Virus record (IMG/VR): IMGVR_UViG_3300047458_000106
DNA length: 64,000 nt
Origin: an uncultured virus (IMG/VR IMGVR_UViG_3300047458_000106)
Taxonomy: Duplodnaviria > Heunggongvirae > Uroviricota > Caudoviricetes
Direction: 5' to 3' (one strand)
Part shown: one piece after another, positions 16 to 41,493 of the stretch
Layout: each line of letters begins with the position of its first letter
Position numbering within the stretch: the stretch's first letter is position 1
The notes under the pieces: generated by a model
The model's database searches: none
The model's input: the letters and a program-made list of their open reading frames with translations, nothing else
Told to the model about the DNA's origin: nothing
Translations under genes and position numbers: made by a program

Positions 16-1551
16 ATGGCAGAACAAGACAATAGTATTCTGAAACTTTTTGGTTTTGAACTAAAAAGAGCAGAAGATAAACAAAAAGAAGAGAAAAAGA
101 AAAAACTTCAATCAGTGGTCACACCCACAGACCCTGATGGTGCTGGATATGTAACTGCAAGTGGGTCTCACTATGGCCAGTTCATTGACATGGACGGCAA
201 TCAAGCAAAAGATAATAGACAACTAGTACTTAAATATCGTGGTGTTGCAGTTCACCCAGAAGTCGATGCGGCGATAGAAGATATTGTTAATGAAGCAATC
301 GTAGGGTCTGAAAATGAAGCACCAGTCGAATTAAATCTTGATAACGTAGATGCACCAGACAATATCAAGAAAACAATGATAGAAGAATTCAATAAAGTTA
401 TTGGTATGATGAAGTTTACTGAAATGGGTACAGATATCTTTAGGTCTTATTACATTGATGGTAGACTATATCATCACTTAATAGTCAACGAATCACAACC
501 TAAACTTGGTATACAAGACATTCGAAACATTGATGCTACTAAAATAAGAAAAGTTAAGAATGTCAAATACAAGAAAGACCCTGCAACTGGTGCCAAGATT
601 GTAGATAAAGTAGAAGAGTTTTACATCTTTCAAGAAAAGACTGGTAGTAATCAGGGTGTGAGATTATCACCTGATTCAGTATCATATGTTACATCTGGTC
701 TTATGGACCCAACAAAGAAAACTGTTGTATCTTATTTACACAAAGCATTAAAACCAATCAATCAATTAAGAATGATGGAAGACTCTCTTGTAATCTATCG
801 ATTAGCAAGAGCGCCAGAAAGAAGAATATTCTACATCGATGTTGGTAATATGCCAAGAGGTAAATCAGAAGCATATATGAAAGACATTATGACTCGTTAT
901 CGAAACAAGTTAGTTTATGATGCAAGTACTGGTGAATTAAAAGATGATAGAAAGCACATGTCAATGCTTGAGGACTTTTGGTTACCTAGACGTGAAGGTG
1001 GTAGAGGAACAGAAATTACTACATTACCTGGTGGTGAAAACTTAGGTCAAATAGATGATATTGTTTACTTTCAGAAAAGATTGTATCGTTCATTGAACGT
1101 ACCACTTAGCAGATTAGAACAAGAAGCACAATTTAGTCTTGGTAGAAGTACTGAGATTAATCGTGATGAAGTCAAGTTTCAAAAGTTTATTGACAAAGTA
1201 AGAAAAAGATTTTCAAAACTCTTTACTGAGATATTAAGAAAGCAACTAATCCTCAAAGGTATTATTACTGATGGAGATTGGAATCTCTGGAAGAACGACA
1301 TTACTGTTGACTTCTTAAGAGATAATCACTTTGCAGAGTTGAAAGACTCCGAGATATTACAGAATAGATTAAATACTATGGACCAAATATCTCAATACGT
1401 AGGTGAATATTTCTCACGTGAGTGGGTAATGAAAAACGTCATGCAAATGTCCGAAGAAGACATTGACGAAATGAAGGCGCAAGTTGAAGGTGAAAATGCC
1501 GCTAGTGGTGGCGATGAAGAATCAGATGCTGGCGGTGATGATAACTTTTAA
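16..1551 (+). CDS. g20: Portal vertex protein (T4 gp20)
   Basis: Motifs YRLARAPERRIFYIDVGN and EDFWLPRREGGRGTEITTLPGG; upstream of g21-g23. Confidence 0.97.
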   Translation: MAEQDNSILKLFGFELKRAEDKQKEEKKKKLQSVVTPTDPDGAGYVTASGSHYGQFIDMDGNQAKDNRQLVLKYRGVAVHPEVDAAIEDIVNEAIVGSENEAPVELNLDNVDAPDNIKKTMIEEFNKVIGMMKFTEMGTDIFRSYYIDGRLYHHLIVNESQPKLGIQDIRNIDATKIRKVKNVKYKKDPATGAKIVDKVEEFYIFQEKTGSNQGVRLSPDSVSYVTSGLMDPTKKTVVSYLHKALKPINQLRMMEDSLVIYRLARAPERRIFYIDVGNMPRGKSEAYMKDIMTRYRNKLVYDASTGELKDDRKHMSMLEDFWLPRREGGRGTEITTLPGGENLGQIDDIVYFQKRLYRSLNVPLSRLEQEAQFSLGRSTEINRDEVKFQKFIDKVRKRFSKLFTEILRKQLILKGIITDGDWNLWKNDITVDFLRDNHFAELKDSEILQNRLNTMDQISQYVGEYFSREWVMKNVMQMSEEDIDEMKAQVEGENAASGGDEESDAGGDDNF

Positions 1552-1565
1552 TCTAGGAGAATAGA

Positions 1566-1769
1566 ATGGATTATATAAAAGACTTGTATGCAAAAATTAA
1601 AGCATGGTTTATCGGTGTTGCTGACCAAGACGGTGACGGTGATGTAGATAAAGAAGATGCTAAGATTGTTGCTAAGAAGGCCAAAACTGCAGTAAAAAAG
1701 ACTGCAACTAAGGCAAAAACTGCAGTTAAGAAAGCAACTGCTAAAAAGAAAACAACTAAAAAGGCGTAA
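1566..1769 (+). CDS. Small protein with EF-hand-like DQDGDGDVD loop and histone-H1-like Lys/Ala/Thr tail
   Basis: AGGAGA SD; 67 aa; repeated KAKTAVKK. Confidence 0.75.
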   Translation: MDYIKDLYAKIKAWFIGVADQDGDGDVDKEDAKIVAKKAKTAVKKTATKAKTAVKKATAKKKTTKKA

Positions 1770-4254: not shown

Positions 4255-5559
4255 ATGGAAGTACAATCTTACGACCAATTGATTGAAAAATGGAAACCAG
4301 TCTTAGATGAAGAATCTGCTGGTGAAATTAAAGACAATCACAGACGTTCCGTAACTGCGGCACTTTTGGAAAACCAAGAGAAAGCAATTGCAGAACAAAA
4401 TGAGACTATGTTATTTGAGGCCGCACCTGCTAACAATACTTCAAGTGTGTCCAATTTTGACCCAGTCTTAATCTCATTAGTTAGACGTGCTATGCCTAAC
4501 TTAATCGCATACGATGTATGTGGTGTTCAACCAATGAATGGACCAACTGGTTTAATCTTTGCCATGAAGGCAAGATATCAAGGTGGTTCAACTTCTAATA
4601 GAGAAGCATTGTTCAACGAAGCAGAAACTAGATTCTCAGGTGATTCATCTGGAACTCATGATTCTGACAACGTTTCAGGTTACAATGGTATTGACTCAGA
4701 TGGTGACAGATTAACGTCTCTTGCCGCTTCTGGTATGCCTACTGTTGATGCTGAGGAACTTGGTGCATCTACTGGTAGTACCTTCAATGAAATGGGTTTC
4801 ACAATTGAGAAATCAACTGTAACTGCTGTTTCAAGGGCGCTAAAAGCAGAATACACTTTAGAACTTGCTCAAGACCTTAAAGCAATTCACGGTCTAGATG
4901 CTGAAACAGAACTTGCTAACATCTTATCTACTGAAATCTTAGCAGAAATCAATAGAGAAGTTATCAGAACTATTAACTCACAAGCAAAAGACGGTGCCCA
5001 ACAAGCAAACGTTACTGTTAATGGTGTGTTCAATATGTCTTCTGATGCTGATGGAAGATGGAGTGCTGAGAAGTTCAAAGGTTTAGGTGTTCAAATAGAC
5101 AGAGAATGTAATCAGATAGCGAAAGACTCAAGAAGAGGAAAAGGTAATATCCTAATCTGTTCTTCTGACGTTGCAACTGCTTTAGCGGCCGCTGGAACTT
5201 TAGATTACTCTCCAGGTATATCTAACAACTTAAACGTTGACGATACTGGTAATACTTTTGCTGGTCTTCTTAACGGAAGAATCAAAGTATACATCGACCC
5301 ATATGCAAATACTGACTACTGTACAGTAGGTTATAAAGGTACTAACCCTTATGACGCCGGTGTTTTCTACTGCCCATACGTACCATTACAAATGGTCAAA
5401 GCAGTTGGGGAAGATACTTTCCAACCTAGAATTGGTTTTAAAACAAGATACGGAATGGCGTCAAACCCATTTGTAGGTTCTACACCTGCTAACGGTCTTG
5501 CTAGTGTTAAAACTAACTTCTACTACAGAATATTCAAGGTAACTAATATCTTAACATAA
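4255..5559 (+). CDS. g23: Major capsid protein (gp23)
   Basis: RRAMPNLIAYDVCGVQPMNGPTGLIFAM; ELAQDLKAIHGLDAE; FQPRIGFKTRYG. Confidence 0.98.
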   Translation: MEVQSYDQLIEKWKPVLDEESAGEIKDNHRRSVTAALLENQEKAIAEQNETMLFEAAPANNTSSVSNFDPVLISLVRRAMPNLIAYDVCGVQPMNGPTGLIFAMKARYQGGSTSNREALFNEAETRFSGDSSGTHDSDNVSGYNGIDSDGDRLTSLAASGMPTVDAEELGASTGSTFNEMGFTIEKSTVTAVSRALKAEYTLELAQDLKAIHGLDAETELANILSTEILAEINREVIRTINSQAKDGAQQANVTVNGVFNMSSDADGRWSAEKFKGLGVQIDRECNQIAKDSRRGKGNILICSSDVATALAAAGTLDYSPGISNNLNVDDTGNTFAGLLNGRIKVYIDPYANTDYCTVGYKGTNPYDAGVFYCPYVPLQMVKAVGEDTFQPRIGFKTRYGMASNPFVGSTPANGLASVKTNFYYRIFKVTNILT

Positions 5560-5581
5560 TCTGTAAAGGTTAAAGACCAAA

Positions 5582-5608
5582 AGGGGCACTCTTCGGGGTG
5601 CCCTTTTT
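5582..5608 (+). terminator. Intrinsic terminator of g23
   Basis: GGGCACTC-TTCG-GGGTGCCC stem with C(UUCG)G loop followed by a T run. Confidence 0.9.
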
Positions 5609-5614
5609 ATATAC

Positions 5615-5636
5615 AAAAAAGGAGTGTCACCACTCC
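5615..5636 (-). terminator. Intrinsic terminator ending the minus-strand RNA
   Basis: Minus strand GGAGTG-GTGA-CACTCC-TTTTTT. Confidence 0.85.
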
Positions 5637-6120
5637 TTCTTCGCCTCGTATTGGGTCAATTCTCATTACTACTCACTACCATCGAGATTTGGCGCCTTGC
5701 AATTCCATGCTCATCAAGGTGCAGATACTTCGTCTTTCGGGTAAATTCCCCAACCTCTTTCAAAGTTGTTCACATTCTTTTACGGCCGTCAAACTGTGAT
5801 TCTACGTGATTAACTCATAGTCATTGTCTTACTTGCCTACCTTTTTGTATTCTCTAGATAATCAATCTATTGTTTCCATAGGGGTCACAAACCATGTATC
5901 TATACTCGCATCTACTTTCCCACGTTTTACCGCTTCGTCATTAATGAATTGGCCCTCGGCGCAAAACATTAACTTACATTGTTTATTGAGTCGCAAAACT
6001 CTCACCAACTAGGTTCAGGTCACAAGTCGACCGTGTATGATAGGTCTCTTCTTCAAGAGGACTTTCACCTCAATTGACCCTGAACTATTAACTCACACTA
6101 CAAAGTTAACGTTATCGAGT
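5615..6120 (-). ncRNA. Putative ~500-nt structured ncRNA (family not identified)
   Basis: Promoter upstream and terminator downstream; no minus-strand ORF of 60 aa or more; several local hairpins and long-range complementarity. Confidence 0.7.
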
Positions 6121-6126
6121 GTTGTT

Positions 6127-6167
6127 ATAATAACAAAACTAACAAGTTTTGTCAACCATTATTTATA
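6127..6167 (-). promoter_or_regulatory. Tandem promoters for the large RNA: sigma70 and late
   Basis: TTGACA (6155-6150), 17 bp, TATTAT (6132-6127); TATAAATA at 6167-6160. Confidence 0.8.
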
Positions 6168-6179
6168 AAATATTAAACT

Positions 6180-6229
6180 TATAAATAAATGTTACAGTTG
6201 TGACACACAATTGTCACACAAATGACACA
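6180..6229 (+). promoter_or_regulatory. Late promoter followed by four 11-bp-phased heptamers (PhoB/OmpR-type box)
   Basis: TATAAATA 6180-6187; TGTTACA 6190, TGACACA 6201, TGTCACA 6212, TGACACA 6223. Confidence 0.6.
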
Positions 6230-6231
6230 AT

Positions 6232-6384
6232 ATGAAAAAACTAGACAAATTGATGAAAAGTGGTAGATTAGATAAGATATGGTCTGGTATTGATACTGAG
6301 TTGAAACCATGGGAATGGCCCACTAGTATTTACATGATACCTTCATTATTTCTTTGTAGTATTGTACTACTGTCATTGATATAA
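6232..6384 (+). CDS. 50-aa peptide with C-terminal transmembrane segment
   Basis: Hand-translated MKKLDKLMKSGRLDKIWSGIDTELKPWEWPTSIYMIPSLFLCSIVLLSLI; below the ORF-track size cutoff. Confidence 0.6.
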   Translation: MKKLDKLMKSGRLDKIWSGIDTELKPWEWPTSIYMIPSLFLCSIVLLSLI

Positions 6385-6385
6385 A

Positions 6386-6416
6386 GAAAAAGGGCAGATG
6401 TTAAGTCTGCCCTTGT
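6386..6416. terminator. Terminator between convergent small ORFs
   Basis: GGGCAGA-TGTTAAG-TCTGCCC; T-rich tail on the minus strand. Confidence 0.75.
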
Positions 6417-6432
6417 TCTAGATGCTTATCTC

Positions 6433-6555
6433 TTAAGCGGCAATTTTACCAGTAATCCCACGATAAGTGATTTCATCACTTTTTTTCGCTTTGGATTTCT
6501 TAGCATTGCTCTTTAGAGTTTTAGCATCATATTTGATACCTCTGTAACAATACAT
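6433..6555 (-). CDS. 40-aa basic peptide with two YRG motifs (DUF4278-like)
   Basis: MYCYRGIKYDAKTLKSNAKKSKAKKSDEITYRGITGKIAA; GGAGG SD; downstream of a glnA-type riboswitch. Confidence 0.8.
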   Translation of the reverse strand: MYCYRGIKYDAKTLKSNAKKSKAKKSDEITYRGITGKIAA

Positions 6556-6619
6556 AGTATTTCCTCCAGTTTTCATTTCGATTTCGTACATACGATATAA
6601 ATCGTACACCCTTCTCCAT

Positions 6620-6768
6620 GCGTTCCTTCGGTTAACTTTCGGTCTCGTTCAGCACTGGAATATATTGACCCAAAAGTGCTTACTTGCTTACCTTTCTTTA
6701 TGAAAAAGAAAGAGGTTGTCAGGTTTTCCTACTTCCGTCTTAGTGGTCAATAACACTAAGATGAACGT
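6620..6768 (-). ncRNA. Glutamine riboswitch (glnA/glutamine-I type) with long P3 insertion
   Basis: Minus strand CGTTCATC-[TTAGTG/CACTAA]-GACGGAAGTAGG...CCGAAGGAACGC matches the marine glnA motif core. Confidence 0.8.
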
Positions 6769-6787
6769 GTATATTTCTATACATTAG

Positions 6788-6795
6788 TATTTATA
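6788..6795 (-). promoter_or_regulatory. Late promoter upstream of the riboswitch
   Basis: TATAAATA on the minus strand about 20 nt before the aptamer. Confidence 0.75.
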
Positions 6796-6960
6796 TAAAA
6801 TACAATCTCTACATTTAAGGGAAGATAGTCTACAATAGTTTCAATATCTTCCCTTATAGAGGTAATGTGACCTTTCTCATATTCACACGGGTGTTCAGTA
6901 ACCAACTCTATTCTGATTTCATTTTAGTCGAATAGTGACTATATGTTAGATAATTAAAGA

Positions 6961-7257
6961 CTATCTAATGCCTCTATTTCCCCTAAGGAAAGTATTCTTA
7001 AACTCTTCGTTTGCTCTTTTTTGTCTACGTATTGCTTTATCTTTTAGCAATCTACGTTTCTCTCTACGAGTGACAAAAAATTCTTTTTTCTTTAAGTCTT
7101 CAATAACACCAGCAGTTTTAACTTTCTTTTTAAATCTTCTGAGTGCTTGGTCGACATTGCCATCACGAACATATACAGTTAGACCAGTATCTTTTGGCCC
7201 ATCGTATCTTCGTTTCTTCGGTCTCTGTGGACGTCTGTTATAGTTATTTTTTCTCAT
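6961..7257 (-). CDS. rpsU: Ribosomal protein bS21 with basic N-terminal extension
   Basis: VYVRDGNVDQALRRFKKKV...LKKKEFF...EKRR...AIRR. Confidence 0.9.
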   Translation of the reverse strand: MRKNNYNRRPQRPKKRRYDGPKDTGLTVYVRDGNVDQALRRFKKKVKTAGVIEDLKKKEFFVTRREKRRLLKDKAIRRQKRANEEFKNTFLRGNRGIR

Positions 7258-7628: not shown

Positions 7629-7657
7629 TTGACAATTGTTGCCGAACCTATTATAAT
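7629..7657 (+). promoter_or_regulatory. Consensus sigma70 promoter
   Basis: TTGACA-17-TATAAT. Confidence 0.85.
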
Positions 7658-7663
7658 ACTTGT

Positions 7664-7792
7664 ATTGAAAATAAGAAAGAGAGGTAAGATTCAGAATAAA
7701 ATAACGGCGTAAAGTCAAAGGTCGACAGACGTTCACCCCCGGTGAGGTAGATTTTGAAGTGGTAGCACCCTTCCCTTGACCGGGGTTTTTTT
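7664..7792 (+). ncRNA. Putative ~130-nt early small RNA
   Basis: Lies between the consensus promoter and a CCCCGGT/ACCGGGG stem + T7; no ATG ORF. Confidence 0.5.
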
Positions 7793-7799
7793 ATAAATA
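7792..7799 (+). promoter_or_regulatory. Late promoter for tRNA-Asp
   Basis: TATAAATA 5 nt before the tRNA 5' end. Confidence 0.8.
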
Positions 7800-7804
7800 A
7801 CATT

Positions 7805-7878
7805 GGTCTCTTAGTTTAATGGTAGAACTTGTCTCTGTCTAAGACGAAGTAGGGGTTCGATTCCCCTAGAGACCGCCA
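7805..7878 (+). tRNA. tRNA-Asp(GTC)
   Basis: Acceptor GGTCTCT/AGAGACC, D arm GTTT/GAAC, anticodon stem TGTCT/AGACG with loop CTGTCTA, T arm AGGGG-TTCGATT-CCCCT, G73, encoded CCA. Confidence 0.92.
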
Positions 7879-7894
7879 GAAATCACAAGTAGAG

Positions 7895-8160
7895 AAGAGT
7901 CGTAGTTGGTTGGTTGTTGTGAGACTCAGAAAAGATGTTCTAGTTGTTAAAGTCAATTAAGACGTGGCATATAGTAGTGAGACTAGAGTAAACATCGAAC
8001 AATGATTGCAATGAAATTCTTACGTAGTTGGGTTGGGATTTGCAGTAAAACGATACTTGTTATGGTGGAAGGCCGAAACCACCTAGATAAAAAATAGAGT
8101 GTAAGAAATCGGGCAGTCCCCGAGACATTGAACTACTATACAATCAACTACACGATTCTT
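7895..8160 (+). ncRNA. Putative ~270-nt structured RNA between tRNA-Asp and iscU
   Basis: Ends pair over ~18 bp (7895-7912 with 8141-8160); several internal helices; possible pseudoknot. Confidence 0.7.
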
Positions 8161-8172
8161 ATAAATAGTAGT

Positions 8173-40977: not shown

Positions 40978-41082
40978 GCGACATATTCTGTCGTAGCATT
41001 ACACTTATTTTAATTACAAGTATTGACAATTCTTGTCTGACCCTGTAAAATACTTGTATTAAGAATGAGAAAAGAGGTAAAA

Positions 41083-41493
41083 ATGCAAAATGATAAATTT
41101 ATTGAAAAGGTAAAAGATTACCTTTATGGTTCAAATGCAATAGGTTACGAAAATAGTGAATATACTTTCCACTGGGATTACGATGAAAATGTAAAAGAAG
41201 TAGAAATCACCGATGAAAAATTAGCAGAAGAATTAGGTGAGTCTTTGCCTTGGGTCAGAGGTTATGTTGACTTTAGAAAAAATGACTTCAAGAAAGGTAT
41301 AAACATAAAATTTCAGAAAAAACAGGTATTTGTTCCTTACGAAGACTTTATTGAAAAACGAGTAAAAGTTTGGTTAGATGGTTATCAAACAAATTACAGT
41401 CGTGATGGTTATTTTTCTGACCCATTGTGTGAGAATTTTGAATATTGGAATTTTAACTTTCAACCAGAGGTAGAAAAATTTCAATTAATATGA
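41083..41493 (+). CDS. Early hypothetical protein
   Basis: Promoter 41023-41051 and AGAGGT SD. Confidence 0.75.
   Translation: MQNDKFIEKVKDYLYGSNAIGYENSEYTFHWDYDENVKEVEITDEKLAEELGESLPWVRGYVDFRKNDFKKGINIKFQKKQVFVPYEDFIEKRVKVWLDGYQTNYSRDGYFSDPLCENFEYWNFNFQPEVEKFQLI

Follow-up and report, generated by a model that had tools for sequence, protein, structure and literature searches.

Organization of the region downstream of the major capsid gene

The window analyzed here, i.e., the whole 64,000-nt stretch of IMG/VR record IMGVR_UViG_3300047458_000106, derives from a marine T4-like myophage of a pelagimyophage-like lineage. At the DNA level, the nearest named relatives of its major capsid gene g23 are Pelagibacter phage Mosig (70.8% identity across 78% of the gene) and the Methylophilales Melnitz phages (68.9% identity across 84% of the gene), and the closest virus record has 73% of the window's sampled words in common. 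The 3 kb located 3' of g23 contain, in this order, an ORF-free unit on the minus strand, a 50-aa ORF (+), a DUF4278-like 58-aa ORF (-) preceded by a glutamine riboswitch (-), a homolog of ribosomal protein S21 (-), a 90-aa ORF (-), a 135-nt promoter-leader-terminator module (+), tRNA-Asp (+), an ORF-free spacer and, past this spacer, the gene for IscU followed by a HesB/IscA-like gene (+). The names S21, IscU and HesB are a reading of the translations. The coordinates of the features are given in Table 1.

Table 1. Features of the window in and around the ORF-free unit located behind g23.
Feature	Position	Strand	Details
Major capsid gene g23	4255-5559	+	
Candidate target site in g23, codons 238-243 (RTINSQ)	4967-4982	+	
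Second hairpin, terminator-like on both strands	5584-5603	.	terminator scan
Intrinsic terminator of the unit	5613-5644	-	core stem 5636-5621, U-tract 5620-5615
ORF-free transcribed body	5645-6120	-	no frame, indels among variants, RNA-library contigs
83-nt near-invariant block	5671-5753	-	no changes in four variants, 1 in L111
Hairpin CAACTTT-GAAA-GAGGTTG	5751-5768	-	fold z -3.0
Candidate 16-nt seed (RNA nt 25-40)	6082-6097	-	perfect complement of capsid mRNA 4967-4982
Extended -10, TGtTATTAT	6127-6134	-	predicted start ~6120
-35 hexamer TTGACA	6150-6155	-	end of promoter module AAATAATGGTTGACA
T4-late-promoter-like box TATAAATA	6160-6167	-	5' of -35
Glutamine riboswitch RF01739	6617-6769	-	42 bits, 94-nt insert within one stem
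Ribosomal protein S21 homolog, 98 aa	6961-7257	-	translation
Early promoter and ~135-nt leader module	7629-7792	+	AGAGAGG Shine-Dalgarno-like, no kept ORF, strong terminator
tRNA-Asp	7805-7878	+	sole ARAGORN find
ORF-free spacer, tRNA-Asp to likely IscU start	7879-8172	+	

Several of these neighbors have features of their own. The riboswitch lies immediately 5' of the 58-aa ORF (6433-6609, minus strand), which contains YRG repeats and matches DUF4278 weakly (23.1 bits, slightly below the cut-off); the riboswitch is present in 6 of 15 related loci. Riboswitch Scanner is reported in PMC7029224 to have found no riboswitches in pelagimyophages, and the same source reports S21 from these phages. 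The S21 homologs of loci L010 and L016 are encoded on the other strand and at a different location. In L010, the HesB-like gene and the S21 gene are separated by ~1.1 kb (5262-6374) that contain only short overlapping ORFs on both strands and gave no match in an Rfam search; this region may be a further non-coding stretch or a decayed gene. The 135-nt module sits just before a TATAAATA box and tRNA-Asp. Copies of it are present in 18 of 80 loci, and its leader resembles the early-gene leader at window positions 41052-41084.

In ten loci, identity across the spacer from tRNA-Asp to the likely IscU start amounts to 93.7-98.0%, and the g23 DNA of these loci is 87.5-97.5% identical (87.5-89.6% in nine of the ten). 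In one helix of the spacer (alignment columns 132-136/165-169), four of the ten sequences have two pairs with both sides changed, a change that may represent a single event. The spacer has no match in Rfam, and contigs from RNA libraries lie on it. It is possibly a structured RNA that is conserved, or else a leader.

A promoter and two terminators delimit a minus-strand unit

The preliminary description of this DNA had proposed a stand-alone minus-strand unit convergent with g23, consisting of a sigma70 promoter (TTGACA-17-TATTAT, 6155-6127), an intrinsic terminator (5636-5615) and no sizeable ORF in between, and all of these elements were confirmed. The promoter scores 11/12, has a TG extension and is the top one of 11 promoter-like sites in the region 5300-7000. 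The promoter module to which its -35 hexamer belongs, AAATAATGGTTGACA, is common to other early-type promoters of the window: allowing at most three mismatches, 19 sites were found vs 7.6 expected, and none of 100 shuffles reached 19.

The late-type box upstream of the -35 hexamer had been taken as an indication that the RNA is made both early and late. The sequence TATAAATA is indeed present at 6167-6160; however, such boxes occur at a near-chance frequency across the window (15 vs 9.6 expected), and in the variant represented by L012 and L085 the box has changed to TACAAATA. Its function is therefore doubtful, and the proposed late expression is not borne out.

The core of the terminator, GGAGTG-GTGA-CACTCC-T6 at 5636-5615, is part of a hairpin of 14 pairs with a predicted stability of -20.6 kcal/mol (z -6.6), and none of 200 shuffles was equally stable. 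A simple terminator scan passed over this signal and instead gave a minus-strand terminator at 5603-5584. This second hairpin terminates g23 on the plus strand; on the minus strand it serves as a backup for the terminator of the unit. Both terminators of the unit (5644-5613 and 5603-5584) are located outside g23, whose stop codon is at 5559. Because these two terminators stand between, the predicted transcript does not overlap the g23 coding region, and their positions do not identify it as a cis-antisense RNA of g23.

The body of the unit has no conserved reading frame

The longest ORFs on the minus strand within the unit encode 48 and 35 aa. Stop-codon reassignment was considered and rejected: no single change opens a frame, because each of the six frames has 3-21 stops. 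Next to these counts, the variants of the body described below are informative, as the indels that distinguish them are 2, 1 and 1 nt long. In L012 and L111 the 2-nt indel disrupts the 48-aa frame. As for the 35-aa frame, a 1-nt indel removes its start, and the other variants have an upstream TGA that closes it, so that no frame is kept among the homologs. Seven pieces of ORFs, taken from the two strands of the unit, had no match in Pfam and PHROG, and tblastn searches with two of these pieces against 50,697 phage records did not give a match either. Moreover, the promoter at 6155-6127 is not followed by a Shine-Dalgarno sequence, a start codon and an ORF, all of which are present at the sister promoters, and the predicted transcript does not have the leader and Shine-Dalgarno sequence typical of the early genes of this phage.

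Judging from these sequence comparisons, we conclude that the body is most probably non-coding. It is very improbable that the unit instead produces an mRNA for at least one micro-peptide. Small frames can be found, for instance one of 13 codons (TTG AAG AAG ... TGA, 6058-6017) and one of 12 codons (MSMELQGAKSRW) in the near-invariant block, and two of the three variant differences in the 13-codon frame are synonymous. Three substitutions have no statistical weight, however, good Shine-Dalgarno spacing and an early-gene leader are both absent, and not even the 35-aa and 48-aa frames survive in the variants. The unit is a genuine transcription unit of ~500 nt, with a promoter, terminators and no kept frame.

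Contigs from RNA libraries match the unit

Among the runs listed, the stretch is present in 18 runs from 8 studies, and 8 runs from 5 studies are recorded as RNA. Four RNA runs, one each from four studies, were compared at the level of contigs, not reads. Three runs from three studies each contain one contig that is restricted to the unit. These contigs measure 466 nt (5645-6110), 451 nt (5655-6105) and 472 nt, the last with 452 nt lying on 5660-6111. Each of them has 3 differences with respect to the window. Their 5' ends (6105, 6110 and 6111) are located 9-15 nt inside the predicted start at ~6120, a distance that agrees better with the sigma70-type promoter than with the TATAAATA box located upstream. 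The 3' ends (5645-5660) coincide with a strain-variable site, 5661-5653, and may be breaks in the assembly graph rather than RNA ends. The contig of the fourth run, X1, is 602 nt long (5604-6205) and extends beyond both ends of the unit; it is little informative, because 27 of 30 bins of the compared stretch are covered in this run.

Contigs reveal neither the strand, nor the true ends, nor the level of an RNA, and their depth cannot rank the RNA of the unit against that of g23. Likewise, the uncovered parts in X9, X11 and X13 (e.g., 6216-6517) cannot be read as silence. With regard to the discrete ~500-nt transcript that had been predicted, contigs of ~450-470 nt fit the predicted size, but they do not define the strand and the true ends of the molecule. 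They provide a weak hint that a discrete RNA of ~450-500 nt is expressed, and on the whole we consider such expression probable.

The body belongs to a small family without relatives among known RNAs

A search of 5615-6167 with the 4227 models of Rfam 15, which include GOLLD, ROOL, RNase P, tmRNA and group I/II introns, gave no match at the gathering threshold, in line with the preliminary description. At E values up to 10, only weak matches appeared (11.7-24.8 bits vs gathering thresholds of 38-80), to unrelated families and located in the terminators, in flanking DNA or in short segments of the body. ARAGORN detected neither a tRNA nor a tmRNA in the unit.

Among the best 80 g23 loci in IMG/VR, the body is present in five, L001, L003, L006, L012 and L002, the last of which is cut. 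Pattern scans of IMG/VR added two contigs, L081 and L087, resulting in a total of seven; five additional IMG/VR stretches were rejected as chance matches to 16-mers. In a metagenome scan, three of 13 stretches are true homologs. The family thus comprises 10 contigs that represent five distinct variants, all at least 90% identical. No homolog of the body was detected by blastn ("distant") in 50,697 GenBank phage records, by a 23-mer scan of a prokaryote genome collection, or by BLAST in five related virus records, one of which is a complete genome of 149 kb; another scan of the prokaryote collection found phage-like contigs in MAGs only. An nhmmer search of every retrieved locus and of the remainder of the window did not reveal remote copies, and no paper on a non-coding RNA of pelagimyophages came up in full-text searches.

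An origin from the host or another bacterium was also considered. A search of 401 genomes of one bacterial class gave just seven matches of 20-45 nt. The five that were inspected lie in or match unrelated genes (among others, a portal gene with an intein, PBP1a and a large repeat protein), and they were judged to be due to chance because the genes are unrelated and none of the matches extends at the protein level. Among them is the portal-like gene of L128, which has 29/32 nt identical to the body. This gene (73-1611, plus strand) contains an intein-like insert, and its contig was binned into a small bacterial genome. The body therefore appears, from its sequence distribution, to be confined to one narrow, young pelagimyophage-like lineage.

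The unit occupies an exchangeable slot

Three loci, L004, L005 and L008, have g23 DNA that is 97.5-97.9% identical to that of the window, and the body is absent from all of them. They match the window upstream of the unit through the -35 hexamer and the first bases of the promoter spacer, then continue with another -10 and a ~135-nt unit with its own terminator, and homology with the window resumes at the g23 terminator. The ~135-nt unit is 90-95% identical to window positions 7658-7792, i.e., to the module located before tRNA-Asp. In L005 the module is present behind g23 only, and the promoter before its tRNA gene is followed by three small ORFs under its control (81, 108 and 40 aa), whose Shine-Dalgarno sequences are good. 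The whole block behind g23 is rearranged again in L010 and L016. The presence of the body does not follow the g23 tree, because L012, whose g23 is 95.1% identical to that of the window, retains it.

The module behind g23 is in reversed orientation in L004, L005, L007 and L008. L012 contains the ~500-nt body and does not contain tRNA-Asp and the conserved spacer; its alignment skips from window position 7799 to 8156 (L012 7597-7608).

Possible sources of the body within these loci were examined and rejected. It does not derive detectably from decayed small ORFs of the L005 type, as tblastn gave no match at E values up to 5, and its local alignments with the 135-nt module are no better than those of shuffles (452/500 and 32/500 as good). 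A motif present three times in the body, AGTTAAT, is not exceptional, since a 7-mer occurring thrice was found in 196/1000 shuffles.

Divergence of the body and of its surroundings

We compared the window with L012 for signs of constraint. The RNA core is 90.7% identical (408/450), similar to the third codon positions of g23 (89.7%), and thus there is no detectable purifying selection on the core. The power of this test is low, because the known glutamine riboswitch, which is 88.4% identical, looks alike in the same comparison. Other non-coding stretches are 73-88% identical. The length of the core is held, at 450 vs 452 nt, over ~10% divergence. In addition, the core contains the 83-nt near-invariant block, for which we made a rough estimate, not computed with a tool, of ~0.01-0.02 for its occurrence by chance; this block may reflect a local constraint or a recombination patch.

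The predicted fold of the body

The preliminary description considered the unit to be a structured RNA, possibly a new class of large, ornately folded ncRNA comparable to GOLLD and ROOL. At first sight there is some basis for this: the unit is an ORF-free phage sequence of ~0.5 kb that has a tRNA gene 1.7 kb away and matches no Rfam family. The core (6121-5672, 450 nt) is not, however, unusually stable, with a fold z of -0.36 and 51/150 shuffles equally stable; z is 0.03 for its reverse complement and ranges from -0.08 to -4.91 for six coding controls of the same length. When the terminator is included, z of the 511-nt fold is -1.75.

The individual helices that had been pointed out, GTTCAGG/CCTGAAC, GGGTCAATT/AATTGACCC and CAACTTT-GAAA-GAGGTTG, are present at their places, but such pairings are no commoner than expected by chance. 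The body contains five perfect inverted pairs of 7 nt vs a mean of 6.3 in dinucleotide shuffles (at least five in 346/500), and a 9-nt inverted pair arises in 129/500 shuffles. The long-distance pairing over ~410 nt did not survive the comparison of variants: in three of the four distinct variants that reach the site, AATTGACCC is replaced by AAATGAATC, which breaks two pairs and turns one into a wobble, while the 5' arm GGGTCAATT is unaltered.

RNAalifold predicts from the five sequences a structure of 142 pairs with a helix closing the 5' and 3' ends. Two pairs are changed on both sides, 14 vary on one side and stay paired, and two have one unpaired cell. These covariation measures are matched by 65/500 shuffles, on a structure that itself derives from this five-sequence alignment, whose variants (10 contigs) are at least 90% identical. 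The only helix of the body that is still paired through several changes is the GNRA-capped hairpin at 5751-5768 (helix 17), with one pair changed on both sides and four on one side. This hairpin counts in favor of an ornate RNA. Given the chance-level stability and inverted repeats, covariation values that 65/500 shuffles reach, and the loss of the long-distance pairing, we consider such an RNA improbable. Nothing supports an ornate conserved fold of the unit or its kinship with GOLLD or ROOL, and the comparison with these RNAs is further weakened by a family that is tiny, young and exchangeable.

Complementarity between the unit and the capsid mRNA

The predicted RNA contains a stretch of 16 nt that is perfectly complementary to the capsid mRNA. 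A match of at least 16 nt in the antisense sense was obtained in 6/1000 dinucleotide shuffles of the RNA searched against the whole window; its location in the neighboring late gene, which is convergent with the unit, is a bonus noted post hoc. The putative seed is identical in all five variants. Sister genomes devoid of the RNA, and also one distant locus, have an identical target site, the conservation of which is thus uninformative, reflecting phylogeny. Half of the seed is inside a predicted hairpin stem. This match, which may be due to chance, is the only lead to a function that the sequence offers.

It is conceivable, although we think it improbable, that a long, strain-variable RNA, borne by the cassette of this abundant marine phage and transcribed early from a host-type promoter, uses this seed (6097-6082) to pair with the capsid mRNA and thereby would time or tune capsid synthesis, with the other co-occurring strains having an empty module.

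Discussion

In our best reading, to which we give about even chances, the unit is a swappable cargo without coding content, carried by an early promoter/terminator cassette within the hyperplastic DNA that follows g23. The host RNA polymerase would make the RNA early in infection, and the two tandem terminators (5644-5613 and 5603-5584) would halt the transcript before the convergent capsid gene. The cassette would be swapped, in the manner of PeSLs, through recombination between repeated promoter/terminator modules. If active, the RNA may be a lineage-specific regulator that acts via short base pairing and has no conserved ornate fold, for which the site in the capsid mRNA at 4967-4982 would be the only concrete candidate target.

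Whether the body itself is a functional ncRNA without an ornate fold is, in our view, close to evenly balanced. A less probable explanation, though one to be taken seriously, is that the body is neutral cargo, i.e., decayed small genes or captured DNA that is transcribed between a maintained promoter and maintained terminators. Divergence at the rate of third codon positions, a stability no greater than that of shuffles, the missing body in the complete 149-kb relative and four more related records, the 135-nt module found in its place in sister genomes, and the small ORFs present as other cargo under such promoters would all be expected of neutral DNA. On the other hand, neither a frame nor a leader nor a Shine-Dalgarno sequence has left a trace in the body, which also has no protein similarity, and a recent pseudogene is expected to retain pieces of its ORF. 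The near-constant length in the face of ~10% divergence and the nearly invariant 83-nt block also argue against neutrality. To our knowledge, phage genomes rarely keep 0.5 kb of junk.

The region behind g23 is hyperplastic and exchanges cargo among near-identical strains. If the body is functional, it would be one of the earliest non-coding RNAs to be reported from the myophages that infect SAR11-type marine bacteria, and it would mean that RNA, and not an ORFan, can be the cargo that moves via the shuffling of promoter/terminator cassettes. The analysis also indicates that an ORF-free unit running from promoter to terminator is in itself no evidence for an ornate RNA. The better-supported RNA elements in the same 3 kb are the glutamine riboswitch and the tRNA-Asp/IscU spacer, the latter being a better candidate for a conserved structured RNA than the ORF-free unit.

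GOLLD and ROOL are large ornate RNAs of phages and prophages that constitute Rfam families. The unit is similarly large, ORF-free and phage-encoded, and is located in a region with a tRNA gene. Unlike them, it has no Rfam match of any substance at E values up to 10, no excess stability and no covariation support, and its distribution is very narrow and young.

Trans-acting base-pairing sRNAs are well known, as are the early "anti-late" transcripts of T4. The unit shares with them an early promoter, convergence with a late gene and the perfect complementarity of 16 nt. Its RNA is about five times longer than typical sRNAs, however, and the candidate seed is partly buried in a predicted hairpin; in contrast to the anti-late transcripts of T4, it does not overlap g23, from which it is separated by two terminators.

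The closest parallel is provided by the PeSL (promoter-early stem-loop) cassettes of T4-type phages. These are repeated early promoters with stem-loops that are concentrated in hyperplastic regions, mark the break points of indels and shield late genes from early transcription, as described in PMC2839356 and PMC4122927. There are differences with these elements. The cargo of the unit contains no ORF, and a Shine-Dalgarno sequence and start codon are absent from the 3' end of the motif. A stem-loop within the promoter motif is inconsistent: a 7-bp AT-rich stem, ACAAAAC/GTTTTGT, lies between -35 and -10, present as such in the window only and weakened in L085 and L087. The phage of the window is, moreover, distant from the coliphages in which PeSLs were defined. 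The inconsistent stem-loop, and a cargo lacking both a start codon and a Shine-Dalgarno sequence, do not allow the unit to be assigned to the PeSL family, and the resemblance is best regarded as functional only. As an analogy it extends to several features. Like a PeSL, the unit has a strong promoter of the sigma70 consensus with an AT-rich upstream region that is repeated in the genome, and strong stem-loop terminators at the far end of its cargo would keep early transcription from the late virion genes. It also has a hyperplastic position, and the replacements between very close relatives (L004, L005 and L008) are bounded by modules, with break points in the promoter spacer and the capsid terminator.
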